A stretch of DNA of 17,809 nt from Candidatus Iainarchaeum sp. (lineage in GTDB: Archaea; Iainarchaeota; Iainarchaeia; Iainarchaeales; UBA10191): NCBI GenBank assembly GCA_030649735.1, contig JAUSFL010000045.1:1-17809 (forward strand), given 5' to 3'. Each line of letters opens with the position of its first letter. The stretch's first letter is position 1. The notes beneath the pieces were generated by a model that was not told the origin of the DNA, made no database searches, and saw only the letters and a program-made list of their open reading frames with translations. A program made the position numbers and the translations under genes. Of the stretch, positions 1-17,809 are shown piece by piece.

Positions 1-527
1 CAGATTCCTGGGTCGCCAGTGTAGCTTCTGTGGCAAAACCTGTTTTGTAAGTTTGTGGGGTCATTGTGGCTTATCTCTGAAAGCCAGAAGTATTGGTCTG
101 GATAACAGTTTGTGACAGGCCATGCCGCAGTGTTTTGGCAGGTCCAATAATTTGTTCCGCTTACGGCAGAGTTCAAATAGTTTCCGCCGGTATCAAAATT
201 TGCAAGTTGTACTGTAATATTATTTTCTTTAGCATACTGTAAAAAGCCATACAGTCCTTGCATGTCTGTGGCTTCATAAGTTCTTTGCATTTCTGAAGGC
301 GCATACCATGAAGGACTCCAGCCAAGGACTCTTGCGAATTGCATGTGCGTACTGTCAAGAAGAGGCCTGATTCTATAGTCTGTCCAGTTTTGGAAGTTTG
401 TTGAATTAACATTCCATCCGACTCCCTTAAAATTGTGCGTTGGGCTTGCAAAATTGATGCTTACAGTAACGCCGAACGTGACGGGCAAAACCAGAAGAAA
501 AGCCAAAAGCAATATTTGTAATTTCAT
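1..527 (-). CDS. Secreted putative glycoside hydrolase (clan GH-A/TIM-barrel-like), 5' part only; runs off the window edge
   Basis: Not in the ORF track. Translated by hand from ATG at 527, it is open to position 1: MKLQILLLAFLLVLPVTFG-VTVSINFASPTHNFKGVGWNV...MQFARV...MQGLYGFLQYAKENNITVQL... It has a Sec-type signal peptide. 'V.I.F....HNFKGVGWN' resembles the first barrel strand of GH30/GH39/GH5-like enzymes. The family assignment is an inference. Confidence 0.7.
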   Translation of the reverse strand, partial: MKLQILLLAFLLVLPVTFGVTVSINFASPTHNFKGVGWNVNSTNFQNWTDYRIRPLLDSTHMQFARVLGWSPSWYAPSEMQRTYEATDMQGLYGFLQYAKENNITVQLANFDTGGNYLNSAVSGTNYWTCQNTAAWPVTNCYPDQYFWLSEISHNDPTNLQNRFCHRSYTGDPGI

Positions 528-532
528 TCTTT

Positions 533-566
533 TTCAATTAGTTTCTTTCAAGATTTATACTTTTCC
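533..566 (-). promoter_or_regulatory. BRE-TATA promoter of the partial GH gene
   Basis: The minus strand reads GGAAAAG-TATAAAT about 30 nt upstream of ATG 527. It is nearly identical to the element at 2361-2394. Confidence 0.65.
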
Positions 567-597
567 CTATGGAATTATTCAAGTGGTTTTAAAATGG

Positions 598-2358
598 CTA
601 GCAGTTTGTCCCGATTTTGTCTGCTGCTGCCTGCAAGTCTGCAATGTCGACTGCGCTGTCGCCTGCGATGTTAAAAGCCAAATCATTTTCATTGATTGCT
701 TTCACTATCCTGGTGAGGTCCAGGATGTTGATTGTTCCGTCTTTTTTTGCGTCAGGACAGGCGCTTGTTGGGACAATAATGCATTGCTTTTGAATATCGC
801 ATTTTTTTCCAGCGCCGCAAGAAGCCCCATTTGCAAGGCTGCTGCAGTTTTCTGCAGTTTGGGGCAGTGCGGTTATTCGATTGCTTGCAAGAATGAAAGC
901 GCCAACTCCATGAGCGTCATTTTCTGCTTTTGGCCTGGTCAAATAAAAATCTGCGGTGGAACCAACGCTTGTTCCGACGCAAATGTCGGTTATTACAAGC
1001 AGGTTGCTTGAGTTAACGTATGCTTTTCCCCCAAGCCCTTTCCATCCATTTTGCATTGTTTGCGAAAATACTGAAGAAGGCAAGTATCCTCTTTCAATTG
1101 ATTTTTTCAAGCCGTAAACAAACATTGCGCTTGCTGATGTTTCTATCCAGTTTCCTTGCAGGCTTGGTTGGTCAATTATTTGAAACCACAATCCTGTTTT
1201 TGGGTCTTGAAAACTTTTAAGCCCGTCAGCCTGCTTTCTTAAAATTTGCAGCAATTGCGCCCGTTTTGGATGGCTTGCTGGAAGATAATCCAAGAATTCA
1301 ATCAATCCCATAAAATACCAGCCATTGGCCCTGCCCCACTTGATTGGATAGTTTGAACTGTCGGAGTCTTTCCAGCCATGATACAATAATCCCGAGCTTG
1401 GGTCTTGAAGCCTGTTTGCGTGGATTATGAACTGGTTTGCGCCTTCGTCAAAATACCTTTGTTCTCCAGTGTCTTTTCCAAGCCTGCCCATTGGAGGCCC
1501 GATCATGAACATTGTGTCGCCCCATAATTCTCCAGGAACGTGCTGGACTCCGCCATCTCTTGTTTTGGGCATTGCCCAAATGTAATTTTCTGCAATTTGT
1601 TTTGCAGCGTCCAAATACTTGCTTTCATGGGTTTCTTCAAAAAGAAACAGTATTGGCAGAATTATTGCATCCATGTTTACGTGCAATACTGCAGTGCCTG
1701 TTATTATTGGGCTTGTGTAGATTTCTGGATCAATCCAATTTCTTATGTAATTGAAGTATTTTTGGTCGCCAGTGTTTTTCCAAGTCCTTTCCAGGCCGTA
1801 AAGCATTAGCGCGTTTGGATAGCCGTAATTTGGAGCGGGGTTTGGAATTCTAGACATTAAAGAGTCTGAAACCATTTTGTATAGTTCGGAGTCTGAAATC
1901 AATTGTGTTTTGTCAACGACAAAAATGAAATAGTTTATTTTAATGCTTTTTTTTGGTATTGAAACAGTTCCTGCAGGAAAGTCCTTGAACATCAATGTCA
2001 TTTGCCCGCTGTTTGAAGCGCCAGCATCTGTGACATTAATTATTGCGTTAGTGCTTTCCCACCCAGTAAAAAAAGCCTCCCTAGTGTCCCAAGCCAAAAA
2101 AACCCTCACTGGCGCGTTCACGTTAAAGCTGACAGCGCTTGTTGTTGCAGGATCTGCTGGAGTTTTGATTGCCTTGTGATTTTCAAGAAAGTAAGGAATT
2201 TCTGAAGTTATTGCATAAGTTCTGTCAATGTAATATTCGCTTCCTTTTCCAAGGCCTGCTTCAATCAATTGCAAATTTGAGGGCTGGACTGCTGTTATTG
2301 AAACAGCTGCTGAAAACCCGGCAAAGAAAAGCAGGAAAACCAAAAGCGCGAGCTTCAT
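598..2358 (-). CDS. Secreted GH105/GH88-family unsaturated glycuronyl hydrolase (YteR/YesR-like) with N-terminal beta-rich module, Cys-rich linker and C-terminal dockerin-like domain
   Basis: Signal peptide MKLALLVFLLFFAGFSAA. GH105 motifs: NMD, LWGDTMFM (cf. WxDxxxM with the catalytic Asp), LLYHGW, WGRANGW, GLWFQIID, NWIETSASAMFVY, DICVGT, HGVGAFILA. The C-terminus has two Ca-binding-type loops, DAKKDGTINILDL and NIAGDSAVDIADL. Confidence 0.9.
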   Translation of the reverse strand: MKLALLVFLLFFAGFSAAVSITAVQPSNLQLIEAGLGKGSEYYIDRTYAITSEIPYFLENHKAIKTPADPATTSAVSFNVNAPVRVFLAWDTREAFFTGWESTNAIINVTDAGASNSGQMTLMFKDFPAGTVSIPKKSIKINYFIFVVDKTQLISDSELYKMVSDSLMSRIPNPAPNYGYPNALMLYGLERTWKNTGDQKYFNYIRNWIDPEIYTSPIITGTAVLHVNMDAIILPILFLFEETHESKYLDAAKQIAENYIWAMPKTRDGGVQHVPGELWGDTMFMIGPPMGRLGKDTGEQRYFDEGANQFIIHANRLQDPSSGLLYHGWKDSDSSNYPIKWGRANGWYFMGLIEFLDYLPASHPKRAQLLQILRKQADGLKSFQDPKTGLWFQIIDQPSLQGNWIETSASAMFVYGLKKSIERGYLPSSVFSQTMQNGWKGLGGKAYVNSSNLLVITDICVGTSVGSTADFYLTRPKAENDAHGVGAFILASNRITALPQTAENCSSLANGASCGAGKKCDIQKQCIIVPTSACPDAKKDGTINILDLTRIVKAINENDLAFNIAGDSAVDIADLQAAADKIGTNC

Positions 2359-2360
2359 GC

Positions 2361-2394
2361 TTCAATTAGTTTTTTCAAGTTTTAATTCTTTTCC
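2361..2394 (-). promoter_or_regulatory. BRE-TATA promoter of the GH105 gene (probably a short-leader or leaderless mRNA)
   Basis: The minus strand reads GGAAAAG-AATTAAAA about 25 nt upstream of ATG 2358. It matches the element at 533-566. Confidence 0.6.
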
Positions 2395-2409
2395 TGGACT
2401 TGCGGCCTG

Positions 2410-4821: not shown

Positions 4822-4868
4822 AATTTTTAAAGCCCCTGTTCCTATTCTAATAAGAAGAATTTTTAAGT
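4822..4868. promoter_or_regulatory. Compact divergent promoter region between polB and the coiled-coil gene
   Basis: About 50 nt of AT-rich spacer between divergent starts, with TATA-like TTTTTAAA (about 4824-4831) and TTTTTAAG (about 4860-4867). Confidence 0.4.
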
Positions 4869-4875
4869 GAATTCA

Positions 4876-5400
4876 ATGGTTCATCAAAGGCCCCAAAGGG
4901 CTCAAGAACAGTCAAGTGGCAGTTCGCAAATTGCTTCAGGCAGTTCTGTGTCTTCAGGCTCTAGTTCTGGACAGGTTTTTTTAAAAGACCTCGCGGCTGA
5001 CGTAAAGGCATTGAATTCTTCAATTTTGCTCTTGAGCCAGAAAATGCAGTATGTGGTAAGGAACGAGAAGATTTTGGGAAGAAACCTTCTGGTTTTGAAC
5101 AAGAAAATCGAGGAACTCCAGAACAGGAAGCCTTCGGATGAAGGCGGGGCTTCGGCAAAGGACACGCAGGCCTTAAAGCAGGACTTGGAAAACACCAGCA
5201 CTGAATTGACCCGCCTAGGCCACAGCATGATTGAAGTAAGGGATGCTTTAGAGCAGGTGAAATTGAATTATGCAAAGTCCGAGGACTTTAAGGAATTAAA
5301 ATACGTGATTGACGCAATAAATCCTTTAGAGTTTGTAAGCGTAAAACAGGTTGACGCTTTGATTGAAAGGAAAATCCAGGAAGCCTTGAAGAAAAAATGA
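4876..5400 (+). CDS. Hypothetical coiled-coil protein with Ser-rich disordered N-terminus
   Basis: The ORF track starts at GTG 4867, but ATG 4876 is more likely. Heptad-rich segments are LKDLAADVKALNSSILLLSQKM and LKQDLENTSTELTRLGHSMIEVRDALEQV. It has no TM segment and fills the gap between polB and the Zn-ribbon gene. Confidence 0.8.
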   Translation: MVHQRPQRAQEQSSGSSQIASGSSVSSGSSSGQVFLKDLAADVKALNSSILLLSQKMQYVVRNEKILGRNLLVLNKKIEELQNRKPSDEGGASAKDTQALKQDLENTSTELTRLGHSMIEVRDALEQVKLNYAKSEDFKELKYVIDAINPLEFVSVKQVDALIERKIQEALKKK

Positions 5401-5422
5401 AAATCTGCAGATAACCGCTAAT

Positions 5423-5674
5423 CTAATCCTTATAGCTTAAGACTTCTTTTTCCACAACTTTTCTTGACTTGCATTTTGGGCACATTGGCAAAAGGCCTTG
5501 CTTGAATTTTCCGCCGCACTGCGGGCAGCCGATAACTGCCGGGCTGTCTCTTGGAATCAACTGGATGTAATCGCATTTTTCGCACCTGTAAAGCACTGCC
5601 TGCTTTAGGTCTCCGTGCGTTGCGTTGAATTCATTGCCGCATTTTTGGCATTTGAAGATTGCGGTTACTGCCAT
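5423..5674 (-). CDS. Small double zinc-ribbon protein
   Basis: Four CxxC pairs (CQKC, CEKC, CPQC, CPKC) in 83 aa. A GAGGGAG Shine-Dalgarno-like sequence lies upstream, and the start is 2 nt from the preceding stop. Confidence 0.85.
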   Translation of the reverse strand: MAVTAIFKCQKCGNEFNATHGDLKQAVLYRCEKCDYIQLIPRDSPAVIGCPQCGGKFKQGLLPMCPKCKSRKVVEKEVLSYKD

Positions 5675-5676
5675 CT

Positions 5677-6399
5677 TTAACTCCCTCTTGTTTTTTTGAT
5701 TGAATCCTGCCTTTTTTCTATCAAGTCAAAGAATTCAGGCATTGAAGCGGCTTCTTTCCAGCTAAGGAATGACAATTCAGTCAATTTCCTGCCAAGCTTT
5801 ATTTGGCCTGTTTTAACTCCTGATTTTAGGAAAGCAATCACATTGGCCGGCAATTTGTTTTTTTCAACTCTTGGGTTTAGCTTGTCCAAATTGCCAATGT
5901 CACTGAGTATTGACTTTTGGCTGAACAAACGCCTGTGAATTTTTTCTTGCGCGGAAGGATTTTCGTTAATCCATATTTCAATAATTCCTTTTTCAATCCT
6001 TACTGCGCCAGTAACTGCGATTTTGCTGCGCTCTCTTGTCGGATGCACTATAAATCGCTTTCTGGAACCAAAAAGCAGCATTCTATTTCTGCCGGAAAAG
6101 CTATCCAAAGGGTCCTGGTTGTATTGAAAAGAATTCAGCCATTTGTGAATTTCGCTTTCGCTCCGGTTTTTTGTTACTGCATCTCCTCTTGGCATTTCTT
6201 CCCATCTTAGTCTTTTGTATTGCCTTCCTTTTTCATCAGTCCTTGCAAGCAGGCGGGGCTGTTCTAAAGAATGCGAAAGCCTGAATTGCTCTGGCCGCGA
6301 GTAAACCTTGAATGGAGTCACGCTTGCCTGCGGAACGCTTTGGGCTATTTTTTTGAGCTTTTTTAACCCAAAAAGCTTGTTATACTGTCTGCTTGGCAT
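5677..6399 (-). CDS. Hypothetical basic (Lys/Arg-rich) protein
   Basis: A 240-aa ORF packed between its neighbours with 4-nt and 2-nt gaps. I recognise no motif. Confidence 0.75.
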   Translation of the reverse strand: MPSRQYNKLFGLKKLKKIAQSVPQASVTPFKVYSRPEQFRLSHSLEQPRLLARTDEKGRQYKRLRWEEMPRGDAVTKNRSESEIHKWLNSFQYNQDPLDSFSGRNRMLLFGSRKRFIVHPTRERSKIAVTGAVRIEKGIIEIWINENPSAQEKIHRRLFSQKSILSDIGNLDKLNPRVEKNKLPANVIAFLKSGVKTGQIKLGRKLTELSFLSWKEAASMPEFFDLIEKRQDSIKKTRGS

Positions 6400-6403
6400 T
6401 TTT

Positions 6404-7963
6404 TCACTTGCCAGTTCGGAATTCCGAAATTGTCGGGCGGAATAGAACGCGGTATTGCTTTCTGTTGGACAATTTCATTCCAACGTCGTTTTGCATGATG
6501 ATTCCGAATTCTGACTCGATGTTTTTCATCAATTCGTCATCCAAGTCTATTTCCCTGGTTACTGAAACAGCGAAACCGACTCCGTAATCCTTTAATTCTT
6601 TCAGTGAATTCGCAAGGCTCTTGAAAGAGCCTGTTTTGTAAAATTGCGAGAGCTTTTGTATTTCCGGAATGAAAATCATTGACTTTGGCTGCTTGGATGT
6701 CCCTTTTTCCTTGTAGAACAAGAGCATTTCCTTGACAATGGCTTCAATCAAGAGCATTGCCTGCCTCATGTCAAGCCCTGCAATGCTGATAATGCTTGCC
6801 CTTCCGATTGCGCGGACCCAGTTTTTCGAGATTTCTTCCATGTTGTTTTTTCCGTCAAAAAACTTTGGATACCTTAATTGAATCAAGTTTAGAGTGCGGA
6901 TTGCCTTCATTTTTTGGTAGGCCGTGATTTCAGTCGAGAACTCCATTTTTTTGACTGCTTCGCTGATTTCTTGCATTGAGCCTGCGTTTGCTTGGGACAT
7001 TGTCAAAATTATTATTTTTCCGGGCGGAAGGCTTGAATTAATTCCGAACAATTCCAAAAGCCCTTCAGGGCTTATTGCAGAAACATTGGCCTGCACTTCA
7101 GTGCATGGGTTGAATTTTCTTGCGGGAAATCCGATTGGCTCTATTTCAAGCTTGAATTCCTTAAGTTTTTGCTTTTCAGTGCTTGCAAAGCCAATGCCTT
7201 CAAAGTTTTCATTCCAGTCAAAAATCACTGAAGGCACGTTGGAAAGAAGCGCGCCTTCAATCAATACTTGCATTGTGTGATTACGGTTTGTTTCAGTCCC
7301 GTCAAAGATTGCGCTCCTTAAAAGGAGGCTTAATGGCTCTTCAACTGCCTGCCCTTCCCTGGTGACTCCTAAAGTGACTTCTCCCGCAACAATTCTTGTT
7401 CCCGCGTTTTCCTGCATTGTTGCTTGCGCGCTTGAAGACATTGAGCTTGAGGCGCCAGAGTGGTAGTTTGTTGCAAGGCTTGGCAAAAGCAAAGGATAAG
7501 TGAAAAATTCTTCTTTAATGTCTGCTGGAGTTTCCTTAAGTTCTGTAAGCTTCAAGTCGTATGCTTTTGAAACGTCTTTTATCATTTCACTGCTGGTTTT
7601 GAGCTTTAAGAGTAGCGAGTCAGTGTCAAGCATTACTGAATCTTCCTTCCAGTCCGCATAGCTTGTTCCGCTGCCGACTGCCAAAAACTTCAAGGTTCTT
7701 TTGGAATCGTGCTTTGTCAATACTAGGAGCTCGCGCGGCAGTGTTTCTGAAAAAGTCTCAACGCTTCCTGAAGCAAGGTATATTTTGTAGAATTCTGAAA
7801 TCAGGCCTTTCACTTGCCCGTTTTCAACGTCAAAGATTGCGACCATTATGATGCTTTCTGGATTGCTGTAAAGCTGGACTTGGAATTTCTGGAAACTTCC
7901 TTCAAAAAGCTTTTCCCAAGGCCCGGAGCCAATGCGGAACATTTCAACCATGTTCAAAACCAC
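6404..7963 (-). CDS. HerA/FtsK/VirB4-like (DUF87-type) P-loop protein, predicted catalytically inactive, with unknown N-terminal domain
   Basis: The HerA-type scaffold is recognisable: VTLGVTREG, SAIFDGTETNRNHTMQVLIEGALLSNVPSVIFDW (Walker A region), MIFIPEIQ (Walker B region) and LKELKDYGVGFAVSVTREIDLD (cf. EGRKYGVGLxxATQRPxDL). The start may be ATG 7951. Confidence 0.75.
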   Translation of the reverse strand: MVLNMVEMFRIGSGPWEKLFEGSFQKFQVQLYSNPESIIMVAIFDVENGQVKGLISEFYKIYLASGSVETFSETLPRELLVLTKHDSKRTLKFLAVGSGTSYADWKEDSVMLDTDSLLLKLKTSSEMIKDVSKAYDLKLTELKETPADIKEEFFTYPLLLPSLATNYHSGASSSMSSSAQATMQENAGTRIVAGEVTLGVTREGQAVEEPLSLLLRSAIFDGTETNRNHTMQVLIEGALLSNVPSVIFDWNENFEGIGFASTEKQKLKEFKLEIEPIGFPARKFNPCTEVQANVSAISPEGLLELFGINSSLPPGKIIILTMSQANAGSMQEISEAVKKMEFSTEITAYQKMKAIRTLNLIQLRYPKFFDGKNNMEEISKNWVRAIGRASIISIAGLDMRQAMLLIEAIVKEMLLFYKEKGTSKQPKSMIFIPEIQKLSQFYKTGSFKSLANSLKELKDYGVGFAVSVTREIDLDDELMKNIESEFGIIMQNDVGMKLSNRKQYRVLFRPTISEFRTGK

Positions 7964-7974
7964 TTTTTCCTTCT

Positions 7975-8015
7975 AAAGAATATTTAAATATGGGTTCTCC
8001 TATTATTAATTAGTT
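7975..8015. promoter_or_regulatory. Divergent promoter with palindromic TATA box
   Basis: A perfect 12-bp palindrome, ATATTTAAATAT (7980-7991), lies between divergent genes and gives TTTAAATA on both strands. On the + strand it is preceded by purine-rich AAAGA. Confidence 0.55.
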
Positions 8016-8044
8016 TTTTGTTAAAAAAGGAGACGGTTTTTCGA

Positions 8045-8581
8045 ATGGTTGACAGCTCTGTTGTTTTAGGAACAGTAAAAAACATGATTGAATCAGGCCT
8101 GAATGACGACATCATCAAGGAAACCTTAAAGGACATTGGCTTGAGCGATCCTGAAATCCAGGATGTTTTAAGGCAGGCGCACGGCCCTAATGTTGAACAG
8201 CCCGCCCCAAAAAGGCCTCAAACTCCAAAAAAGCCAATTGAAGAAAATCCAACAGAGCCAAACCCTGTTGAAAGGCCAGGGCCAATTGTTTTTCCAGAGC
8301 ATGATAATGCATTGGACAATGCAAGCGTGCATAACGCAATTTCTGAGCTTGGCTCTAAAGTTGATGACTTGAAGGAACGCGTTGACAGCATCAACACTTC
8401 AGCGCCGTTGGGAAATTCAGGCAATTTTGAAGGAGCCGCGGGCTTGCAGTCAAGGATTGACACAATCTCTACAGACATCAAGGAATTAAAGGCTGGAACC
8501 AACGCTCTAGTGGACTTGATGAAAAAAATCCTTGAAACAGACAGGGATGTTCTGCTCAGGCTTGAAGGGAAGAAGAAATAA
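8045..8581 (+). CDS. Hypothetical protein: small N-terminal helical domain, Pro-rich linker, C-terminal coiled coil
   Basis: ATG 8045 has AGGAG upstream (the track starts at TTG 8018). The N-terminus has a G-x5-I-x3-L-x3-G pattern (SGLNDDIIKETLKDIGLSDPEI), followed by a PAPKRPQTPKKP linker and the heptads LQSRIDTISTDIKELKAGTNALVDLMKKIL. Confidence 0.8.
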   Translation: MVDSSVVLGTVKNMIESGLNDDIIKETLKDIGLSDPEIQDVLRQAHGPNVEQPAPKRPQTPKKPIEENPTEPNPVERPGPIVFPEHDNALDNASVHNAISELGSKVDDLKERVDSINTSAPLGNSGNFEGAAGLQSRIDTISTDIKELKAGTNALVDLMKKILETDRDVLLRLEGKKK

Positions 8582-9061
8582 TTATTTTTTATCATCTTTT
8601 TTGAAAATTTTGTTAAACCCGTCAATGAAATTTTTGATTCCTTTTGCAGTCCGGGAAATCGGGTAAGGATTGGATAGTTTTTCCCCGTCTTTTGCAAGCA
8701 ATGCCTCGGCGCTTTTCTTGCCCGCAACTTTCAGGTTTTCTTCCCAAAACTTTATTCCAATATCGCCTTTCATTTTTGCGGCTTCGACTTTTTTCCATTC
8801 GTTTTCCAATCCTTTGCGTAAGCTGTGCCCGCCTTTTTCAGCATGCTTTTTTGTCCCCTGCCAGAAAAAATGCAAAAAAAGCACTCCGGCAGCGAGAGCG
8901 CAAATTATTCCAGGCAATGCCCAGCCTGAAAGAAGGAAAGCAGCGCCTAATCCTGCAAACAGCACGAAAAGCACGAACTGGAAGCTGTTCATGAAGTATG
9001 CGAGAATTATTATGAGAAAGAATCCAATCAGGAGAAAGTTTTGCAATTCAGAATCAAGCAT
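8582..9061 (-). CDS. Membrane protein: about 3 N-terminal TM helices and a charged amphipathic soluble tail
   Basis: Residues about 9-67 are hydrophobic, followed by a Lys/Glu-rich tail. The ATG directly abuts the upstream TGA (TGAATG). Confidence 0.82.
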   Translation of the reverse strand: MLDSELQNFLLIGFFLIIILAYFMNSFQFVLFVLFAGLGAAFLLSGWALPGIICALAAGVLFLHFFWQGTKKHAEKGGHSLRKGLENEWKKVEAAKMKGDIGIKFWEENLKVAGKKSAEALLAKDGEKLSNPYPISRTAKGIKNFIDGFNKIFKKDDKK

Positions 9062-9412
9062 TCAATAACCGCCCATTCCGCCTTCGCCGCCAAGGCCTTC
9101 CAGGCCTCCGTACATGTCTTGGCCGCCCATTCCAAGGCCGTAAGGGTCTTGGGCCTGCGGCTTTTTTTTCAAGGAAGAAAGCACTGCGACAGCAATTAGT
9201 ATTATGAGGATTGGGAGAAAATACTCTTTTAGGCTTCCGCTAGAGCTCATGAACAAAAAAACAGCGACTGCTATGAGGATTATTGAGCTAACCAGCGACC
9301 TCATGGTGATTAAAAGCACCGCAATTATTACAAAAACAATCCATGTTTGCTGCATTTGGAAAGCCAGGAAAACCAGCAATATTCCAACAAGCAGGTTGAA
9401 AGAGTCCATCAT
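9062..9412 (-). CDS. Small membrane protein (3-4 TM) with Gly/Met-rich C-terminal tail
   Basis: Residues 6-79 are hydrophobic, then KKKP and the tail GLGMGGQDMYGGLEGLGGEGGMGGY. The start is 10 nt after the upstream stop, with GAGG. Confidence 0.85.
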   Translation of the reverse strand: MMDSFNLLVGILLVFLAFQMQQTWIVFVIIAVLLITMRSLVSSIILIAVAVFLFMSSSGSLKEYFLPILIILIAVAVLSSLKKKPQAQDPYGLGMGGQDMYGGLEGLGGEGGMGGY

Positions 9413-9422
9413 TCCAAAAGCC

Positions 9423-9683
9423 TCATTTGTTTATTGTCGGAAGTTTTTCGAAAATTTCCTTCCCAAAAGTCGCGAAAATGAACAATGCCACTCCAATCCA
9501 AATCAAGTCCGGGTTAGTGTAGAATGTAATGTAGGAAATGACTATTGCGAAGACTATCGCGAGCTTTGCGCTGCCAAGATTGTTTTTTGCCCAGGAGAAA
9601 ATCCACACGAAAGTGAAGATTGCCAAGGCAATCCAAATGTTTCCCCAAATGTCCAAAATTGCTCCAAACAAATGCAACACCAT
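9423..9683 (-). CDS. Small membrane protein (about 3 TM), paralog C
   Basis: Hydrophobic 86-aa ORF carrying S-x5-LG-x3-L-x9-Y (IFSWAKNNLGSAKLAIVFAIVISY). Confidence 0.85.
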   Translation of the reverse strand: MVLHLFGAILDIWGNIWIALAIFTFVWIFSWAKNNLGSAKLAIVFAIVISYITFYTNPDLIWIGVALFIFATFGKEIFEKLPTINK

Positions 9684-9704
9684 AATTATGTTTATTCTTT
9701 TGAG

Positions 9705-9720
9705 TGTTTAAACCTTTCCC
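9705..9720 (-). promoter_or_regulatory. Internal BRE-TATA promoter
   Basis: The minus strand reads GGGAAAGG-TTTAAA (TATA at 9712-9707), about 24 nt upstream of ATG 9683. This is typical leaderless spacing. Confidence 0.6.
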
Positions 9721-9736
9721 AATTGCCAGCCCTTGC

Positions 9737-10051
9737 TTAGCGAAACCTGGTTCCAACACCCCACATTATTACGCTTCCAAACCCGACTCCTAAAAGGATT
9801 TGGAAAACAAACAATGAACTAGTGACTGTAAGCCATTTTATCACGAGAAAGTAAATCAAGATTCCAGTGAACAAGTAAGTCAGGATTCCGTCGCCCAAAT
9901 AGCCCCTAACTGTGGACCAGATTATGAAAACCATTATCAACGCGAACAAGTACTTTGCCGCTGGAAACACTGTAATTATCAAAGGCGGCAATAGCAAAAC
10001 TGCCGCAAATGCAATGAGAATGAAAATTATGACATTTCCTTTGGAGTTCAT
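9737..10051 (-). CDS. Small membrane protein (3-4 TM), paralog B
   Basis: Hydrophobic 104-aa ORF with the motif IWSTVRGYLGDGILTYLFTGILIY. The start overlaps the upstream stop (TAATG at 10053-10049). Confidence 0.85.
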   Translation of the reverse strand: MNSKGNVIIFILIAFAAVLLLPPLIITVFPAAKYLFALIMVFIIWSTVRGYLGDGILTYLFTGILIYFLVIKWLTVTSSLFVFQILLGVGFGSVIMWGVGTRFR

Positions 10052-10455
10052 TAACGGCCTCTCTTTAGCAGTCCTTGAAGCATTCCGATTGCCTGATGGC
10101 TTGCGTGGTGGGCGTGCTGCAATTGCTTTTGCCTTTCCTTGACGTCAGTGCCTAAAACATCAGGCCGTTCTTCCCCTTGCTGTTGCTGCTGGCCTGGCTG
10201 GCCCGCGGTTATGAAGAAAAAGTCAACGAATAGTGTTGAGACTCCGGCCATTAACAGCGTGTAAATCATGAAGGCGCCTATTGAGATTGCTGGAATCAGT
10301 ATGAAAACCACGTAAAACATCACTATAATCAGGATTATTGAAAGCAGTCCTTTGCCCAAGTGGTTCAGGATAAAGCTTATTATTGAAATCATTATGAAAA
10401 CTTGGATTACAAAATACATTTCTTCGAAAAAACCCAGGATTATTGGCTCTAGCAT
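10051..10455 (-). CDS. Small membrane protein (about 3 TM) with Gln/His-rich tail, paralog A
   Basis: Residues about 14-82 are hydrophobic, with the motif IISFILNHLGKGLLSIILIIVMFY. The tail contains QQQQQ and HAHHASH. Confidence 0.85.
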   Translation of the reverse strand: MLEPIILGFFEEMYFVIQVFIMISIISFILNHLGKGLLSIILIIVMFYVVFILIPAISIGAFMIYTLLMAGVSTLFVDFFFITAGQPGQQQQQGEERPDVLGTDVKERQKQLQHAHHASHQAIGMLQGLLKRGR

Positions 10456-10489
10456 TTTTGGAAAACCAAAGAAGTAGAAGTGTTTTAGG

Positions 10490-10505
10490 CTTAAAAAGCA
10501 TTACT
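10490..10505 (-). promoter_or_regulatory. Putative BRE-TATA upstream of the membrane-protein cluster
   Basis: The minus strand reads GTAATGC-TTTTTAAG in the 53-nt gap upstream of ATG 10455. Confidence 0.4.
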
Positions 10506-10508
10506 GCC

Positions 10509-13500
10509 TTAGCCAATGCAGTTTTGGCCTGCAACCAGGCTTTTGCTCAGTCCGGAAATGCTTCTCTTGCTTCCTGCCTGTTCAAAAATAGTTTTTGGAT
10601 TCCACCAGAACCTTGTCCGAACTCCAGTGTTTGTCACGCAAACCTTGCCTTGCTTTACAAGCTCGAAAACATCCTCGACTGTAGCAATGCTGTTGTTTAT
10701 GTTGTTTTTTTCCATTGTTGAAATTCCATTCAATGCAACAACGCTTCCGTCAGAATCCGGAGTGTATAATGAAAAGCCGCTTGTTGGCTGCATTGTTCTT
10801 AGCGAATACTGGCTGCTTTTTGGAGTGTAAAAGATTGTCCTCAAGTAATTGTCGCCGCTTAACTCAATTTTTTGCCAATCCACTGTGTAAAGGGTTTCCC
10901 AGTTTGCGACATTGTCAAGCGCGTTTGCTTTCCTGTCTGGCTTTTCGTCAAAAGCCTGTATTAGAGGCAGTCCGCTGAAGTCATAGCAGTTTCCTCCAGC
11001 GCTCCACAGCGCTAAGGAATTGCCTACAACTTGCGGAGTGTTTCCTTGCATTAAAGTGTAGAAAGCCCCGAAAGGCTCTGTGCTTTTTTCTTTTGCCGTA
11101 ATCTTCATCATTGTTGGAGTCGCCAGGTTTGGCGAGAACTCCATGCTTTTTTCAGTGTTTGAGCTTGTTTGAATGCTTAGTAAATTTCCTTTCCTTGTAA
11201 TGTCGTTGTTCAAGTTTTGCAAATTGTCTTCAAACCTTGTGTTGACTGTTCCCAAAGAATTGCTTCCCGCATCTGGCGAGGTTTTTGCGGAAGTTAGGGA
11301 ATTGTCAATCACTATGACTTCATCCTGGTTTACAAACTTCACTCCATACCCTTGCCTGTTGTAAGAACTGCCTTCCAAGCCAATGTTTCCATTCAATGGC
11401 ATGCTGTAGAATGGCGAGTTTGGAGTCGGCTCCTTGATTAAGTAGAATGTTATCGCCATTGCTGCTTTTGGGCTGTTGTTTCCGTCAAACAGCCTCCAGT
11501 CGTCATTGTATACTGCCGCAATGTTCACTTTGTATCTTCCGGCGCTTCCAAGCTTGTCTGAATCAAAATACTTGTTTGTGAATTTCAGCCTGTTTGCGTC
11601 AAGGAAGTATTTCTTGAATCCTTGCGCGTCATCCTTGAAGAATTGCGGCGCATCAGCCAGGCTTTCCCTGACATAATAGTCCACAAAGTCTTTCCTGAAG
11701 TCCATCGTGTAAGCGTCCCTCATGAGCAATGCGTCAAAGCTGAACATTTTTTCCAGCGAAACCTTGTCGGTTATTGCTGTTGTTGGATTGACTCCTGCGT
11801 TAAAGCCGCCGGCAGTGTCAATAAAGCGCATGATAATGCTTTTTCCGCCGGAAAAGTCTGTTGTCCTTAGCATTTCGCAGTCTGTTTGGTTGATGAAGTC
11901 ATTGTATTCTGCGATTCTTTCAAGAATAAACATTGCGAGAAAGACATTGTTGGTGTCAACTTTGACTCCGCTTCCAGCGTCTGTAAGATTGGATACAACT
12001 GCGTAGCCTGCCGGTGAAAGCGATAATGGGCAGTCTAAAGTGATTTCTGAATTTGGCTGCATGGTTGTTGGCAAGTAAGTGCATGTTGCGCTTGTGGCGC
12101 TTCCATTCATGAGGCGCACTTGAGAATTCAACTGCACTGTTGCCGCAGTCAATGTTCCATTCTTGATAGTGGTTTTTACCACAACGTCATTGCTTTGGTT
12201 TGTTGAATTGTATGTCGTCTGCTGTTTTATTATTGACTTGATGTAAACGCTGTTTGCGTCTATTATCCTGCTTGCCATGGAATTCCCGTCATAGCTGGCG
12301 GTTTGCTGTGTTGACTGGTCTATATTGGTTTCAGGGCATATGTTTTCGAAGTAATTGTTTGCCCTGTAAAAGTCATCCAGGAGTTTTATTCTTTTGCTTA
12401 ATGCAATTGACAATTGCGTGGCGTCGCAGTAAACTCCGTTAGGGTTTTCTGCATCGCAGGTGTCATAATTTATTCCAGAACCATCAGTCCAGCTCCAGTC
12501 AAGCTTTACTTTAGGCAGGCTGCCGTCTCCAGTCCTTCCAAGCAGGCTAGTGCTTGAGCAGTCTAAAGTGTCAAACTGTATTTTTGGCAATTGCTGCCTT
12601 GTCTCTTGAGTTTTCACCATGATGTGGAAGCTTTCAGACCTGATGGTTGTGGTTTCTTCGCACTTAATGTAGTAATTTCCAAAATCGCCGTCTGCGCCGC
12701 AGTTTACACTTGCTTTTCCTTTATGCGTGGCATCGCCGTGAATGTGTTCAGTGGCCTTGACTGTCAAAATTTCATAAATTGGGTCTGGCTTCACGATTCC
12801 TTCATTTTCCAGGACAACTCCGACGCTTTGAACTCCGTCAGTTGTATCCCTGATGTCAAAATTCCAGGATGCCTTGATTTTGTCGTTTGTTGTAATTATT
12901 TCTTGGGCGTCTGGCGGCAAATAACGGTCATAAGTCTTGTCCATTGTTCCAGAAAGATTGATGATGTAATCATTCAGGCTGTTTGTTTGGAAAGTGTCTG
13001 CGCAGTCTGTCCCGCCAAACCCAAAAGCCATAAGAATTGCAATTACTATTGCGATAATAACTACGGCTATAATGCAAATCCAGCAGACTGTTACCAGGCC
13101 CACTGCAAATGTTGCCCAGCCTGCTGCCGCCGTTGTAGCGGCAGCCGCGGTTGCTGCTGTTGAAATGAACATCATTGATCCTGCAATAAGCCCCACTCCG
13201 GCGCCAATTGCCCCATACCCTAAATAATTAGGGTCTGTTGAGGCTTCGCCCCAAGCGCACATGTTTGCTTTCACTTTGACTGACTCTTCCAAAAGCCTGT
13301 TGTATAATGTTGTGGAGTCTTTGGCTCCTTGGCCCAGCATTATGAAATTGTACTTGTCCATGTAGAATGCCTTTGTTTCTTTAGGCTCTACAATTACCGG
13401 GAAGTCAATGAGTTTTTGCCAGCTTCTTCCAGGAACTTTGGCTTCAACTGTTATTCCGTAATATCCAGGCATGCTTTGCCTTCTGACAGTGATTTCCTTG

Positions 13501-16500
13501 CTTGTGTTGATTACTGCGGTAGTGCTCCAAGGGCTTACTTCAATGCCGCCTTCTTTTGTTCCGCCGCGGCAATTAACGTTTTTTGCGTCATTTTGGCAGA
13601 ATCTGAACTGCACTTTAGTGCTTTCTCCGCATTTTGAAGTGTCTATCGTGAATGTTTTTTCATCCTCGCCTTTTGCAATCCTTACTCCAGTGTCGCTTCC
13701 TGGCTCGAATTGCACGCATTCAGTTAAAGTGGTCACTAGAATGTTTGCGTTGATTGGATTGCTTGCCCCGACGCTTTTCATTCCTGAAGTTGTGGGAGTT
13801 GAAGCGTCAAATTCCACTTTGAATTTTGCTTCTTCGTTCAAATGGCCTTGGGTTGGGGCAAAGCTGATCATTGAGTAATATTCTGCCTCTTCGCTTGGCC
13901 GTAAAGTGTCAAATAGCGTAATCCACTCGCCATCCCTCAAAATTTCAGAGGCAGAAGCCCCTGTATTTGGGTCTGTTACAGTGACTTGCACGTTTCCAAT
14001 GGGGTTTCCTATCCAAGTAAGCCTTGCTTTCAAGTACTGCACTGGAATATTGCTTCCTTCGACTTGGCAATTGTTCAAAATAGTGAATTCCTTGGTCGTC
14101 AGGTTCTCTTGTGTCATTGACTGCCAGTCTTTCAGGCTGATGTTAATGCAGCCAGTGTCGTCAACGCTTGGCCCGACTGAAATGTTTGCCTTGAATGGAA
14201 GGTTGAAAGCCCAGGTTTTTCCCAAGGAATCATTGGAGAACTCCAAATGCAATTGCCCGTTGACTTCTTTTTCGTCTTCAAGGATCGCGCTTGGAGAAAC
14301 CGCGGCCTTCATTGTGAGGCTTTTGGTTGAGTTAGGGTCTATGTAATAATTTCCAATCAATTGGGCAAGGTAATTGTTCATCAAGTCTTCATCCAGGAAT
14401 CCGCCAAAGCGGCCGGTAATGCGCGCGTTCGAAAGGTATAATTCAATTGGCACTTTGTTGTTTGCTATTGTTGTAACTTCCTTGCTTGTGCGGTTTTTCA
14501 AATTCAAGCTTGCCAATAGCGAGTCCGGGTCAAACTCTAAAATGTTCTCGTCGATTTTTATTTCTTCAACAGCGCCTGCAAAGTCTTCCTTTTCTGCCTC
14601 AATCCTGATTATTGTTCCAGGGCTGCTTGATGGAATAGTGAATGACGCAATTCCAAGCCTGCTGGTTTTTTTGCTTCCTATGAGGGTTTCAGTCCTGTCA
14701 GGCGCTATTTTGGTTGCCTTGACTGTCGCGTTTTCCAGCACGAAGCCCTTGTTGTCTTTAACTATTGCGTTAAAGTCATTGGTTGTGAAAGCCCCGAAAA
14801 AGTCAGGAATTATTTCCAGGGAAAGCTGGTTCTCTGATTTGACGCTGAATGAAATTTCCTTAGTAAATACCACTGCATCTCTCGCAATCAATTTTACAAC
14901 AAAGCTTGAACTGCCTGTTTTTTTAGGCTGGAAGCGCAAGAGCATTTTCACGCTTTTGTTTTCACGCATGTCCTGGATTTGAATTTCCGGAATCTTGAAT
15001 GCGTTAAAGCCGGAGTTTGAGACTGGAATCCCGTTCGCGTTAGTGAAAGTGTATTCCAAAATTTGCAAGACATCGCTTGTAGTGCTTCCTTCATCTTCAG
15101 AATTCACGAACTGGAAGCGCGCGTTGTTTTCTGTCCCGTAAACTGTCTGGGAAATGTTTGATATTTCAAAGCTCATTGTGTAAGCCTGGAAAACCTTCAA
15201 ATTGTAAGGCCCTGTAATGTTGAGTCTTTCTGACTCGTCATAAACCCTGTCGTTGTAAAAGCAGAACCCGCTTTCATCATCGCATAATGCCGGCTTTCCC
15301 TCATAGAACGGCTGTTCTTTGGTCAATGCATAAAGAGATTGCACGCTGCCTGACTCCAGCGCAGTCCCAAGCCTTTGGTCTTCCGGAGTCCTGATGATTT
15401 CTCCATTGTCTTTTCCAACCCACGCGCGGTAATTGAAAAGCAATGCAGTGCCTGGAGTAATGTCATTGCGCACTTTGATTTCAGCGTCAATTAAGTAAGT
15501 GGTGTTTGATTTAGGGCTTGTAAATGTCGCGTTAACCCATTTGAAGTCTGAATTTGTCAAAGAGTCAGGGCTTGAGTCAATGTCAGAGCCATTGTCCGGA
15601 TTCCATGTAGTGCCCTTGAGTGCAGTGATTTCCGGAGAGAAAATATTCCTTTGATAGACCGGGTCGTTTTCCAGAATGCTTCCCTTTTCCTTTCCGCCGG
15701 TCATTATGAAAAAGCCCGCTGTTTGGGGATTCAGGCTTGCTGGAATGTCAAGCTTTAATCTGACAACATACCTTTCCCCGGCCTTTAATTCGTTCTTTCT
15801 TGTCGCTCCATCAAGCCCGTAAATTCCTACAATGTCAAACTGGGGATTGCCGCCTGGAATTGTCTTCTTCAAGACTGCGTTGATTGTTATTGTCTGGCTT
15901 TTCAGAATCTGGTAATAGCTTGAAACAAGGCTTGAATATCCTTCAGCGCTAACTGTGGCGTAGACTTTCTTGTCTGCCTTGAAAGCAAAGTCAGCGCTTC
16001 CAGTTTCAGGGCTTGTTTCCAAAGCGCAGGCAGTTCCATCAGGCTTTGGGCATTCCTTTCCTGACTCTGTCTTGAATTCAACGCGCGCGTTCGCGATTGG
16101 CAATCCTTCCTCGTCTTTTACAATTACTTTCAGTATTCCTTCCCCGATTTCCATCCGGACTGTTTGCTTTGCGGGAATTTTTGGCTCAATGCTGAATGGG
16201 TTTGAAGAATCCTTTTTTTCAGCAGGGTATTTGAAAGCGCGCAAAAAATACTTTCCCCGCTTTAAGTTCGAGAATTTTGCAACTCCATTAACGTCAGTGA
16301 CTGCAGGGTTTTGCGGCGCCAAAAGCTGCGTGTCTGCATTATAGATTGAAACTTCAGCATTTTCGACCGGAAGAGAGTCTTCATCAAGCACTGTTGCCTC
16401 TAGCTTTCCGCAATTGCTTGCCGAATCAAGGCATTTTTCCAGTCGCGCAGTGAAAGCATTGGTTTGCTGGCTTGAAAAATTAAAGTCTTGCTCGAAGGCA

Positions 16501-17630
16501 AGGTAGTCTTCCTGGCCGACTTGAATTGTGAAAGTTCCATACTCAAACAATGCCACATTCTTGTCAGAATTATTGTCTGTAGTGAATTTTGCCGCAACAA
16601 TGCCGTTCTTTGATGTTATTTTCACGCTTGCGCTTGAAACCCGCAAGTTTGATGCCGCGTCAATCACGCTTATTTGGACAAAGCCTTTTGTCTGCCTTTT
16701 TGTCGTGGCGTTAAGGCTGATGTATTCTCCAACAAGCTTTTTTGAGTCAGTCCTTGCGCTTTCAAACCTTCCGCTAGAGTCAGTGACTGTCGCATAATAT
16801 TCTGTTTTTTCAACATTGCCAAATTCTGCAATTCCGTCAACAGCGTCCTTGCTTCCCCTTTCAGTGTTTTCAGAATCATGCAATACAATTGTGAATTTTT
16901 CCTTGATTACCAGTCCTTCAGCGTCAAGAACTTTCACAATGACTTTTCCTTTAGGCACTTCAATTTCTGAAAGATTGATTATTGACTCGCCAGTCCTTAA
17001 AGTATAGCCGTTCACGCTTTGAAAGTTTTTCGCGCTCACGTCAGCCTTCATGACTCCGCAGCCTGCGGGCACGTTGATTGAAACTTGGCCTTGGTCTGTG
17101 GTCATTGTCGAAGGGCTTGGAACAACTGTGGAATTCGAGCAGCTTAGCTTTATTGAGACTTCAGTCCCTGAAAGCGATTCGTTGTTCTCTTTTGCAATCA
17201 TCAGGTTTATTTTCGTCAATTCGGGGATTTTTGGCTTTGACAGGACAATTTCAATCATTTTGCTTTTCTTGTCCGCAATGAATTGCTTGGAAAAATTGTC
17301 AAAGCCGTTCCTTGAAACACTCACCTGTATTTTTTCATTGGGCTTTACGCTGAATGATTTTAAGGCGCCGCTTGCATTGGTTTCGCTTGTTAAAGACTGG
17401 CTTCCAATCATTAACTGAACTGGCTGTCCCGGAACCAAAAGATTGTTTTCCGTCTTCACTGTAATTTTGACTTCGTACATTTCAGGCGACAGTGCAGGCA
17501 TTACCACAAAGAAAGCAATCAGGACAAGAATGACTAAAATGAGCAGAAGGAAAACAAAATGCGGAATTCCCCTGTCGTCAAGCCAGTCTATAATCCCGTA
17601 ATAAATGTCTTGAAGTCCCATTAGAATCAA
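10509..17630 (-). CDS. Giant (about 2,370 aa) membrane-anchored surface protein with tandem carboxypeptidase-regulatory-like/Ig-like beta-sandwich domains and an internal hydrophobic segment
   Basis: Uninterrupted 7.1-kb ORF; the likely start is ATG 17621. It has an N-terminal TM helix (FVFLLLILVILVLIAFFVVM) and repeated V.V.D..G.P(V/I).NA.V modules. It is beta-rich and Cys-rich with many N-x-S/T sequons, and has a 75-aa uncharged stretch at aa 1467-1541. Confidence 0.92.
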   Translation of the reverse strand: MILMGLQDIYYGIIDWLDDRGIPHFVFLLLILVILVLIAFFVVMPALSPEMYEVKITVKTENNLLVPGQPVQLMIGSQSLTSETNASGALKSFSVKPNEKIQVSVSRNGFDNFSKQFIADKKSKMIEIVLSKPKIPELTKINLMIAKENNESLSGTEVSIKLSCSNSTVVPSPSTMTTDQGQVSINVPAGCGVMKADVSAKNFQSVNGYTLRTGESIINLSEIEVPKGKVIVKVLDAEGLVIKEKFTIVLHDSENTERGSKDAVDGIAEFGNVEKTEYYATVTDSSGRFESARTDSKKLVGEYISLNATTKRQTKGFVQISVIDAASNLRVSSASVKITSKNGIVAAKFTTDNNSDKNVALFEYGTFTIQVGQEDYLAFEQDFNFSSQQTNAFTARLEKCLDSASNCGKLEATVLDEDSLPVENAEVSIYNADTQLLAPQNPAVTDVNGVAKFSNLKRGKYFLRAFKYPAEKKDSSNPFSIEPKIPAKQTVRMEIGEGILKVIVKDEEGLPIANARVEFKTESGKECPKPDGTACALETSPETGSADFAFKADKKVYATVSAEGYSSLVSSYYQILKSQTITINAVLKKTIPGGNPQFDIVGIYGLDGATRKNELKAGERYVVRLKLDIPASLNPQTAGFFIMTGGKEKGSILENDPVYQRNIFSPEITALKGTTWNPDNGSDIDSSPDSLTNSDFKWVNATFTSPKSNTTYLIDAEIKVRNDITPGTALLFNYRAWVGKDNGEIIRTPEDQRLGTALESGSVQSLYALTKEQPFYEGKPALCDDESGFCFYNDRVYDESERLNITGPYNLKVFQAYTMSFEISNISQTVYGTENNARFQFVNSEDEGSTTSDVLQILEYTFTNANGIPVSNSGFNAFKIPEIQIQDMRENKSVKMLLRFQPKKTGSSSFVVKLIARDAVVFTKEISFSVKSENQLSLEIIPDFFGAFTTNDFNAIVKDNKGFVLENATVKATKIAPDRTETLIGSKKTSRLGIASFTIPSSSPGTIIRIEAEKEDFAGAVEEIKIDENILEFDPDSLLASLNLKNRTSKEVTTIANNKVPIELYLSNARITGRFGGFLDEDLMNNYLAQLIGNYYIDPNSTKSLTMKAAVSPSAILEDEKEVNGQLHLEFSNDSLGKTWAFNLPFKANISVGPSVDDTGCINISLKDWQSMTQENLTTKEFTILNNCQVEGSNIPVQYLKARLTWIGNPIGNVQVTVTDPNTGASASEILRDGEWITLFDTLRPSEEAEYYSMISFAPTQGHLNEEAKFKVEFDASTPTTSGMKSVGASNPINANILVTTLTECVQFEPGSDTGVRIAKGEDEKTFTIDTSKCGESTKVQFRFCQNDAKNVNCRGGTKEGGIEVSPWSTTAVINTSKEITVRRQSMPGYYGITVEAKVPGRSWQKLIDFPVIVEPKETKAFYMDKYNFIMLGQGAKDSTTLYNRLLEESVKVKANMCAWGEASTDPNYLGYGAIGAGVGLIAGSMMFISTAATAAAATTAAAGWATFAVGLVTVCWICIIAVVIIAIVIAILMAFGFGGTDCADTFQTNSLNDYIINLSGTMDKTYDRYLPPDAQEIITTNDKIKASWNFDIRDTTDGVQSVGVVLENEGIVKPDPIYEILTVKATEHIHGDATHKGKASVNCGADGDFGNYYIKCEETTTIRSESFHIMVKTQETRQQLPKIQFDTLDCSSTSLLGRTGDGSLPKVKLDWSWTDGSGINYDTCDAENPNGVYCDATQLSIALSKRIKLLDDFYRANNYFENICPETNIDQSTQQTASYDGNSMASRIIDANSVYIKSIIKQQTTYNSTNQSNDVVVKTTIKNGTLTAATVQLNSQVRLMNGSATSATCTYLPTTMQPNSEITLDCPLSLSPAGYAVVSNLTDAGSGVKVDTNNVFLAMFILERIAEYNDFINQTDCEMLRTTDFSGGKSIIMRFIDTAGGFNAGVNPTTAITDKVSLEKMFSFDALLMRDAYTMDFRKDFVDYYVRESLADAPQFFKDDAQGFKKYFLDANRLKFTNKYFDSDKLGSAGRYKVNIAAVYNDDWRLFDGNNSPKAAMAITFYLIKEPTPNSPFYSMPLNGNIGLEGSSYNRQGYGVKFVNQDEVIVIDNSLTSAKTSPDAGSNSLGTVNTRFEDNLQNLNNDITRKGNLLSIQTSSNTEKSMEFSPNLATPTMMKITAKEKSTEPFGAFYTLMQGNTPQVVGNSLALWSAGGNCYDFSGLPLIQAFDEKPDRKANALDNVANWETLYTVDWQKIELSGDNYLRTIFYTPKSSQYSLRTMQPTSGFSLYTPDSDGSVVALNGISTMEKNNINNSIATVEDVFELVKQGKVCVTNTGVRTRFWWNPKTIFEQAGSKRSISGLSKSLVAGQNCIG
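15860..17470 (-). repeat. About six tandem diverged beta-sandwich (CarboxypepD_reg-like) protein repeats
   Basis: Repeat starts: ITVKTENNLLVPGQPVQL, LMIAKENNESLSGTEVSI, VKVLDAEGLVIKEKFTIV, ISVIDAASNLRVSSASVKI, ATVLDEDSLPVENAEVSI, VIVKDEEGLPIANARVEF. A seventh copy (AIVKDNKGFVLENATVKA) lies near 14770. The repeats are visible only at protein level. Confidence 0.7.
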
Positions 17631-17686
17631 TTCTGTAGGTTAAAAAACAGATTAAATTAAGACTTTTTAGTATTAAAATGTTGTCT

Positions 17687-17809
17687 TTATTTAATGCATT
17701 CTGATTCTGCGCTTTTTTCATTGCCTTCAATTGATTGGATTATTGGGGTTGGATTCCACCAGAACTTCTGCTCAAGCCCTGTTCCAGAAACGCAAACAGT
17801 CCTGTTCCT
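17687..17809 (-). CDS. 3' end of an upstream gene sharing the giant protein's C-terminal motif (partial)
   Basis: Not in the ORF track. Hand translation gives RNRTVCVSGTGLEQKFWWNPTPIIQSIEGNEKSAESECIK*, with the stop at 17689-17687. This matches the giant protein's GKVCVTNTGVRTRFWWNPKTI...NCIG*. Confidence 0.85.
   Translation of the reverse strand, partial: RNRTVCVSGTGLEQKFWWNPTPIIQSIEGNEKSAESECIK

Follow-up and report, generated by a model that had tools for sequence, protein, structure and literature searches.

What is a run of 75 residues without a single charge doing in the middle of a very large protein, and which membrane, if any, does it enter? The question is raised by a giant open reading frame (ORF) in a stretch of DNA from the tiny groundwater archaeon Candidatus Iainarchaeum sp. 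(GCA_030649735.1, contig JAUSFL010000045.1, forward-strand positions 1-17,809; genome of 1.28 Mb in 51 contigs, 92.7% complete). This whole stretch of 17,809 nucleotides is referred to below as the window. The ORF (10509..17630, minus strand), the longest in the window, encodes a protein of 2373 amino acids (aa), here called the giant, from a TTG at 17630. An alternative ATG start at 17621, three codons downstream, gives 2370 aa and is used by the identical database protein P0002; the earlier residue numbering, counted from the TTG, may be offset by +3 relative to that deposited entry. A preliminary description of the sequence had suggested that the segment might be a disulfide-closed hydrophobic loop for entry into a host or partner membrane. 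The segment itself was confirmed, and it is not there by chance. As to its role, we give about an even chance to a simpler arrangement, in which the loop of this paralog folds as a hairpin of two helices into the cell's own membrane, forming a second anchor beside the N-terminal one.

The uncharged segment and the family that carries it

The segment lies at 13002..13259 on the minus strand, corresponding to aa 1458-1543 of the giant. It consists, in order, of Cys1458 (13257..13259, minus), nine residues, 75 residues free of D, E, K and R (the uncharged run, aa 1467-1541), Asp1542 and Cys1543 (13002..13004, minus). Cys1458 is conserved in the family alignments, and Cys1543 is part of a conserved ending of the (D/E)-D-P-C type that here reads T-D-C. 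A direct read of the protein showed that the second-longest uncharged run has 31 aa. When the protein was shuffled 2000 times, the longest uncharged run had a mean length of 27.5 and a maximum of 56. Since no shuffle exceeded 56, the 75-aa run cannot be attributed to chance.

The glycine-zipper-like part, the Ala/Thr run, the GW and the very hydrophobic helix that had been described within the run were all present as stated. The first of these is a candidate helix, helix 1 (aa 1470-1493; 13152..13223, minus), which is Gly-rich and marginally hydrophobic, with a Kyte-Doolittle (KD) 19-mer maximum of 1.65 and GxxxGxxxG spacing (G1476, G1480, G1484). An uncharged linker follows (aa 1494-1506; 13113..13151, minus), made up of an Ala/Thr run at aa 1494-1503 and then G1504-W1505, and is the proposed hairpin turn. 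Helix 2 (aa 1507-1540; 13011..13112, minus) is strongly aliphatic and membrane-helix-like (KD 19-mer maximum 3.52). At its start lies a CxxC motif, C1516-W-I-C1519 (13074..13085, minus), often CPxC in relatives; a CxxC was found within the loop in 24 of 85 mapped relatives, and its role in helix 2 may be in redox chemistry, metal binding or helix capping.

The giant belongs to an unnamed family of proteins of about 2300-2500 aa, typically present in several copies per genome, and shows the similarity, the length and the conserved C-terminal body of its full-length members. A word-indexed search with aa 1300-1750 returned 39 relatives of 1657-3100 aa (strongest non-identical E 1e-134); those with a name are entered as 'carboxypeptidase regulatory-like domain-containing protein' or 'hypothetical' and derive from Diapherotrites, apart from one from Micrarchaeota. 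At E<=0.001, an exhaustive search with aa 1218-2373 gave 553 cluster representatives; 294 of them also passed E<=1e-30. In species-representative genomes, 197 stretches code for a relative. We retained 73 loci, nearly all from Candidatus Iainarchaeum (Ca. Iainarchaeum andersonii and a complete genome among them), many of them truncated. The C-terminal 457 aa of the giant were matched in 187 of the 215 genomes of the phylum, in 55 of its 58 high-quality genomes and in 69 of 79 genera, with 1-7 matches per genome; a few families outside the window's order had no match. The family appears to be specific to Iainarchaeum-type DPANN archaea, and its members would be giant envelope proteins. The family is acidic overall (K+R 9.0%, D+E 13.4%). 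Shorter database entries, considered as natural split forms starting at helix 2, turned out to be contig-end fragments or internal-Met calls, and that idea was rejected.

As had been noted before, the giant begins with a hydrophobic anchor (aa 21-49; 17484..17570, minus; KD 19-mer maximum 3.7), which is preceded by a short acidic tail kept across the family. Pfam domains of the Ig-like and prealbumin-like kinds were found in the N-terminal half only (e.g., CarboxypepD_reg at aa 410-467 and Big_1 at aa 949-1007), and the matches of a PDB profile search were confined to the Ig-like domains of the same half. Pfam holds no family for the last ~830 residues, and the same picture was obtained for 21 full-length relatives. 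An NCBIfam search of the giant gave nothing meaningful, PHROGs gave no match for it, and a search of the ESM Atlas with aa 1545-2373 gave no usable match. The C-terminal body (aa 1544-2373; 10512..13001, minus) is the most conserved part of the family. It has a confident predicted fold and many invariant cysteines, which are even in number and spaced as local pairs, not in the style of CxxC metal sites. A C-terminal sorting signal was considered for the uncharged segment and rejected, the segment being internal and followed by these 830 conserved residues. Inside the body, aa 1761-1920 (11871..12350, minus) combine very low conservation (majority-residue fraction about 0.21-0.25) with constant length, and may form an exposed beta-sandwich domain.

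To compare the loop among relatives, profiles were used to find the conserved block on either side of it; in 85 proteins the two blocks extend as far as the loop. When the C-terminal half was aligned with 47 relatives, conservation reached at least 90% at both C1458 and C1543. A Cys stands at both loop ends in 82 of the 85 mapped proteins, the remaining three being off by one position. In a profile alignment (n=110), both cysteines were found in 81 members, neither in 17, the upstream one only in 11 and the downstream one only in 1; in all of these 11, a Cys stands 1-4 residues off the place where the downstream one was expected. With 81 of 110 having both and 17 having neither, the bracket cysteines are gained and lost jointly. 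This is what a disulfide predicts, and the two probably form one.

Loop length has a median of 87 aa and extremes of 21 and 556 aa. Its standard deviation is 115 aa, compared with at most 17 anywhere else in the full-length alignment, making this the sole strongly length-variable site of the protein. No 19-mer of KD >=1.6 is present in 22 of the 85 loops, some of which have only 21-46 aa. The 87 giants in the 73 loci comprise 36 with a short membrane-helix-like loop (KD >=2.2), the class of the window giant, 11 with a short marginal loop, 12 with a short non-hydrophobic one and 28 with a loop of 200 aa or more, and tandem paralogs of one genome have differing loop classes. In the nine loops no longer than 60 aa, Trp is enriched 7.4-fold over background; across all loops W, G and A are enriched in the first 30 residues, and G and I in the last 30, where K falls to 0.34x and R to 0.09x. 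Long loops are Ala/Thr/Ser-rich, with Gly-zipper-like helices at both ends and usually a (D/E)-D-P-C finish. The content of the site is always membrane-interacting in type, and it evolves freely while the rest of the protein is conserved.

Close relatives were compared at the level of DNA. A relative about 97% identical, on contigs of another groundwater metagenome, is collinear across the loop. A further groundwater metagenome contained a collinear contig together with variant contigs that lose the match at 12998 and 13236, between the two cysteines. This suggests a close variant or a paralog with a replaced loop; the contigs were matched at 80% likeness and may derive from paralogs.

AlphaFold2 was run on aa 1218-2373 with 48 sequences. 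The body was predicted as compact and confident, with a mean predicted local distance difference test (pLDDT) score of 83.7 and a predicted template modelling score (pTM) of 0.76. Of three low-confidence stretches, the largest (model residues 254-323, i.e., aa 1471-1540; pLDDT 23-46) is the loop, which was left unplaced; the sole helix drawn within it spans aa 1517-1535. The chain leaves the body after a strand at model residues 231-239 (ending at aa 1456) through a short helix starting at C1458, and on re-entry it forms a second short helix, at C1543, and then a strand (model residues 330-338) that starts at aa 1547. Further strands were predicted at model residues 358-392, and the sequence after the loop is beta-rich, in agreement with the beta-strand-like flanks described previously. 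A three-copy complex prediction for aa 1381-1620 scored 0.00 against a mark of 0.42 and counts neither way. The Cys-bracketed site would seem to be a conserved insertion site between two beta-rich domains of the C-terminal body, one that tolerates almost any length; a variable loop between two cysteines and two conserved beta-rich blocks is the family trait, and the giant has it at C1458 and C1543.

The membrane that the loop may enter

The conserved blocks flanking the loop must share one side of the membrane: the polar, Trp-rich loops of 21-46 aa in some relatives cannot cross a bilayer. With both flanks on one side, the loop of the window giant must therefore cross the membrane either zero times or twice. 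That side is most likely the outside of the cell. The N-terminal part comes after a helix of signal-anchor type, which in 72 of 105 relatives has a less acidic stretch of 15 residues ahead of it than behind it; this part is also Ig-like and enriched in N-glycosylation sequons; and the C-terminal body has its many even-numbered invariant cysteines. In 31 long-loop relatives, the observed/expected ratio of sequons was 1.24 in the N-terminal ectodomain (the observed count was reached in 0 of 200 shuffles), 1.02 in the C-terminal body and 0.99 in the long loops. Since the C-terminal body itself is not enriched, sequon density is no marker of the side of the membrane for long loops. For the earlier claim that both flanks look extracellular, a common side is supported; its sequon argument proved weak for the C-terminal flank.

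Hydrophobicity was compared with a simple summed per-residue insertion scale of literature values; it gave about -6.4 for helix 2, about -7.8 for the N-terminal anchor and +2.3 for helix 1. During Sec-type export, a segment like helix 2 should exit the translocon sideways into lipid, and a weak neighboring helix can co-insert with it. Because helix 2 is near the anchor in hydrophobicity and such partitioning is to be expected, a hairpin in the producer's own membrane is the reading that we favor. Both the hairpin and the identity of the membrane are inferred. In the arrangement envisaged, the aliphatic helix 2 would partition into the cell's own membrane during export and draw the marginal glycine-zipper helix 1 in with it, the uncharged Ala/Thr linker serving as the turn between them. 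Both large domains would stay outside, and the C-terminal body would be pinned to the cell surface by this second anchor.

The charges around the loop helices fit this arrangement weakly. In the 30 loops of at least 100 aa, the mean net charge over 15 residues changed from -1.7 ahead of helix 1 to -0.2 behind it, and from +0.57 ahead of the last helix to -2.43 behind it; 24 of the 30 had a higher charge on the inner than on the outer side, as expected of an in-membrane hairpin with acidic outer ends. Moreover, Trp-rich composition is expected of contact with a membrane interface, and the Trp-rich short loops suggest that the loop-bearing face of the body adjoins the membrane in all paralogs. 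The synteny of the giant gene with four small polytopic membrane proteins across the order also speaks for the own-membrane hairpin, as do the scarcity of K and R in the last 30 loop residues, the co-varying bracket cysteines and the compact AlphaFold2 body with its loop unplaced.

Several observations weigh against it. The proposed cytoplasmic turn lacks K and R, an uncommon feature in a constitutive hairpin, and helix 1 by itself would not insert. Helix 1 and the hairpin are absent from the AlphaFold2 prediction (helix-1 pLDDT <50). The charge bias is modest, the family is acidic overall, and the middles of the long loops have a net acidic composition (462 K+R vs 650 D+E). The extreme variability in length and sequence is more typical of an exposed, selected surface than of an anchor, and the groundwater-metagenome variant diverges exactly between the two cysteines. 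Finally, the existence of paralogs with no hydrophobic helix means that an anchor at the loop site is dispensable.

Such variability leads back to the proposal of the preliminary description, in which the disulfide-closed loop would be inserted into a host or partner membrane. Displayed outside, it would act at cell-cell contact in the manner of a fusion peptide or a pore-forming hairpin. The loop is indeed fully uncharged with a Gly/Ala-rich first part, as in fusion peptides; it is the single hypervariable site, with a cassette-like difference between close relatives; the short loops are Trp-rich like membrane-interface loops; and AlphaFold2 leaves it unpacked against the body. In PMC5905446, large membrane-anchored proteins of one Diapherotrites archaeon are proposed to act in cell-cell interaction. 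Some members of the phylum are described there as free-living. Helix 2 is so close in hydrophobicity to the giant's own anchor that the producer's membrane should capture it during export, and nothing that we found points to a foreign membrane as its target. Shielding amphipathic helices, heptad repeats or a cleavage motif are not visible, and the sequence after the loop is beta-rich. Searches of Pfam, NCBIfam, PHROGs and PDB sequences gave no similarity to a toxin, translocator or fusogen. Paralogs in the same genome have quite different loops, and the gene cluster is a stable chromosomal feature, present in 55 of the 58 high-quality genomes of the phylum. We therefore consider insertion into a foreign membrane unlikely. 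A related and rather more speculative idea takes the whole site as a swappable membrane-active cassette, a spanning hairpin in one paralog, a Trp-rich interfacial wedge or a long helical arm with glycine-zipper ends in another, that would allow a tiny DPANN cell to seize, deform or bridge the membrane of a neighbor, the hairpin of the present paralog being released from, or shared with, its own membrane at contacts. We think this quite unlikely; if true, no earlier candidate would exist for a device that bridges archaeal cells by membrane insertion.

The loop might also stay outside any bilayer, as a protein-protein interface, for instance between tandem paralogs in a hetero-oligomer or towards the small membrane proteins of the downstream genes, or as a plug that binds lipid or glycan. 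Glycine-zipper helices are classic helix-helix packing motifs, which suits an interface; paralogs of several loop classes coexist in a genome, often in tandem, and small membrane-protein genes are conserved next to the giant gene. A conserved interface is, however, not expected to range from 21 to 556 aa, and a stretch of about 22 aliphatic residues suits contact with lipid better than burial inside a protein, so that this explanation appears improbable. Even less credence can be given to helix 2 crossing alone as a single pass, which would place the 830-aa C-terminal body in the cytoplasm, where it could contact the HerA-like protein of the cluster. It is true that helix 1 is too weak to insert alone, that the body shows no sequon enrichment and that a cytoplasmic HerA-like protein is encoded nearby. 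But relatives with no hydrophobic helix in the loop must keep the body on the side of the N-terminal ectodomain, the cysteines of the body are invariant, even-numbered and locally paired, unlike CxxC metal sites, and the co-varying bracket cysteines would fall into different compartments.

The choice among these explanations matters because the way in which DPANN archaea build their envelope and make cell contact is largely unknown. The family is present in nearly every genome of the order, with up to about 7 copies of about 7 kb in genomes of 0.6-1.5 Mb, which is a very large investment. The sharply bounded loop site offers a defined handle for telling surface-layer anchors from contact devices. 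A loop that does enter a foreign membrane would add a new type of element to those by which archaeal cells interact; one that is merely an anchor would still be a useful marker for sorting paralogs.

The gene neighborhood

Five genes for small multi-helix membrane proteins (134, 104, 86, 116 and 159 aa; 8582..10455, minus) lie downstream of the giant gene. Between them and a gene for a HerA/FtsK-like protein of 519 aa (6404..7963, minus) is a coiled-coil gene (8018..8581, plus), and a second coiled-coil gene (4867..5400, plus) separates the HerA-like gene from polB. The gene order giant, tm134, tm104, tm86, tm116, coiled-coil, HerA-like, second coiled-coil, polB recurs across the order. Among the 73 loci, tm104 was found in at least 55, tm134 in at least 43, tm86 in at least 42, tm116 in at least 38, the HerA-like gene in at least 28 and polB in at least 23; the window carries all six. 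The 159-aa gene occurred in 4 of the 73 loci, and genes for 240 aa and 83 aa in 0 of 73. No Pfam, NCBIfam or PHROGs family was found for the four small membrane-protein genes and the two coiled-coil genes, and PHROGs gave no meaningful match for any neighbor. A viral or mobile-element origin was considered and rejected, as the synteny with polB is stable across the order and the PHROGs searches were blank.

The 519-aa protein matches DUF87/HerA weakly (E 2.8e-6), with no other family signal, and has degenerate Walker motifs. In the window protein and 15 relatives, the Walker A site is GGxxxxRxH-like with no GK[S/T], and Walker B reads hhhhP[E/D]; the canonical GxxxxGK[ST] Walker A with an acidic Walker B, as in HerA/FtsK ATPases, is not present in the protein. 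No PDB sequence match was obtained for it, and its family is confined to Diapherotrites entries named 'hypothetical'. Judging by these motifs, the protein may be a pseudo-ATPase, retained to serve as a structural partner.

At the other end of the window, the contig breaks off within the 3' end of an upstream tandem paralog (17687..17809, minus), and this piece is identical to the final part of a 2791-aa giant on contig C47. Because the end of the C47 giant is also encoded at the end of the window (17690..17809), the two giants are tandem neighbors. The loop of the C47 paralog (L077 19-8394, minus) comprises several hundred residues, is Ala/Thr/Ser-rich with Gly-rich ends, and apparently lacks the downstream bracket Cys. 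It may also be noted that the window encodes a glycoside hydrolase family 88 protein (598..2358, minus; 586 aa) with an N-terminal extension of about 170 aa that has no family match; its gene is not syntenic with the giant cluster in other loci.

Comparison with known systems

The hairpins of alpha pore-forming toxins and of type III secretion translocators resemble the loop of the giant in having two uncharged, Gly/Ala-rich helices joined by a short turn and competent to enter a bilayer. Those proteins are exported either in soluble form with the hairpin shielded, or through dedicated secretion systems. The giant, by contrast, has its own membrane anchor and no visible shielding helices, and the searches of Pfam, NCBIfam, PDB sequences and PHROGs revealed no homology to a known toxin or translocator family. 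Fusion peptides and loops are Gly/Ala- or Trp-rich and uncharged, often stand beside disulfides and are borne on a large ectodomain. They share the uncharged Gly/Ala- or Trp-rich character with the loops of the family, but helix 2 is far more hydrophobic. Beta strands, not heptad repeats, follow Cys1543, and no basic cleavage motif precedes aa 1467, as would be looked for in class I-type fusion. The likeness of the loop to toxin hairpins or fusion peptides is one of composition only.

Closer in phylogeny is Candidatus Forterrea multitransposorum, a member of the Diapherotrites with clustered membrane-anchored proteins of >1,800 aa that are proposed to take part in cell-cell interaction and that fill several per cent of a genome of roughly 1 Mb (PMC5905446). 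These proteins and the family of the window share the phylum and the side-by-side arrangement of giant anchored proteins, and are likened here by description only. The sole printed mention of such proteins that we found consists of one sentence and one figure legend of that paper, and these are silent on a hydrophobic or variable loop in mid-protein. Within the portions of the full-text literature covered (including PMC6393860, PMC4158269, PMC5898192 and PMC5905446), there was no account of the loop or of the gene cluster of the family.

The Gly-zipper hairpin families PF13488 (Gly-zipper_Omp), PF13441 (Gly-zipper_YMGG) and PF05433 (Rick_17kDa_Anti) differ from the hairpin proposed here, which is internal to a 2373-aa archaeal protein, bracketed by cysteines, includes one strongly aliphatic helix and has no lipoprotein context. 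Lipoproteins of the SlyB/Pcp type are examples of the glycine-zipper two-helix hairpin. The loop of the window giant gave no match to the three models, only sub-threshold matches of a composition type (MgtC, 18.6 bits against a cut-off of 31.4), while the loop of the relative P0086 gave weak matches to Gly-zipper models (E 0.0035 and 0.04, below the curated cut-offs). The hairpins of these families are short, Gly-rich, uncharged accessory anchors with GxxxG spacing, much as the loop of the giant would be in its own membrane, and their trait, GxxxGxxxG in an uncharged helix, is found in helix 1.

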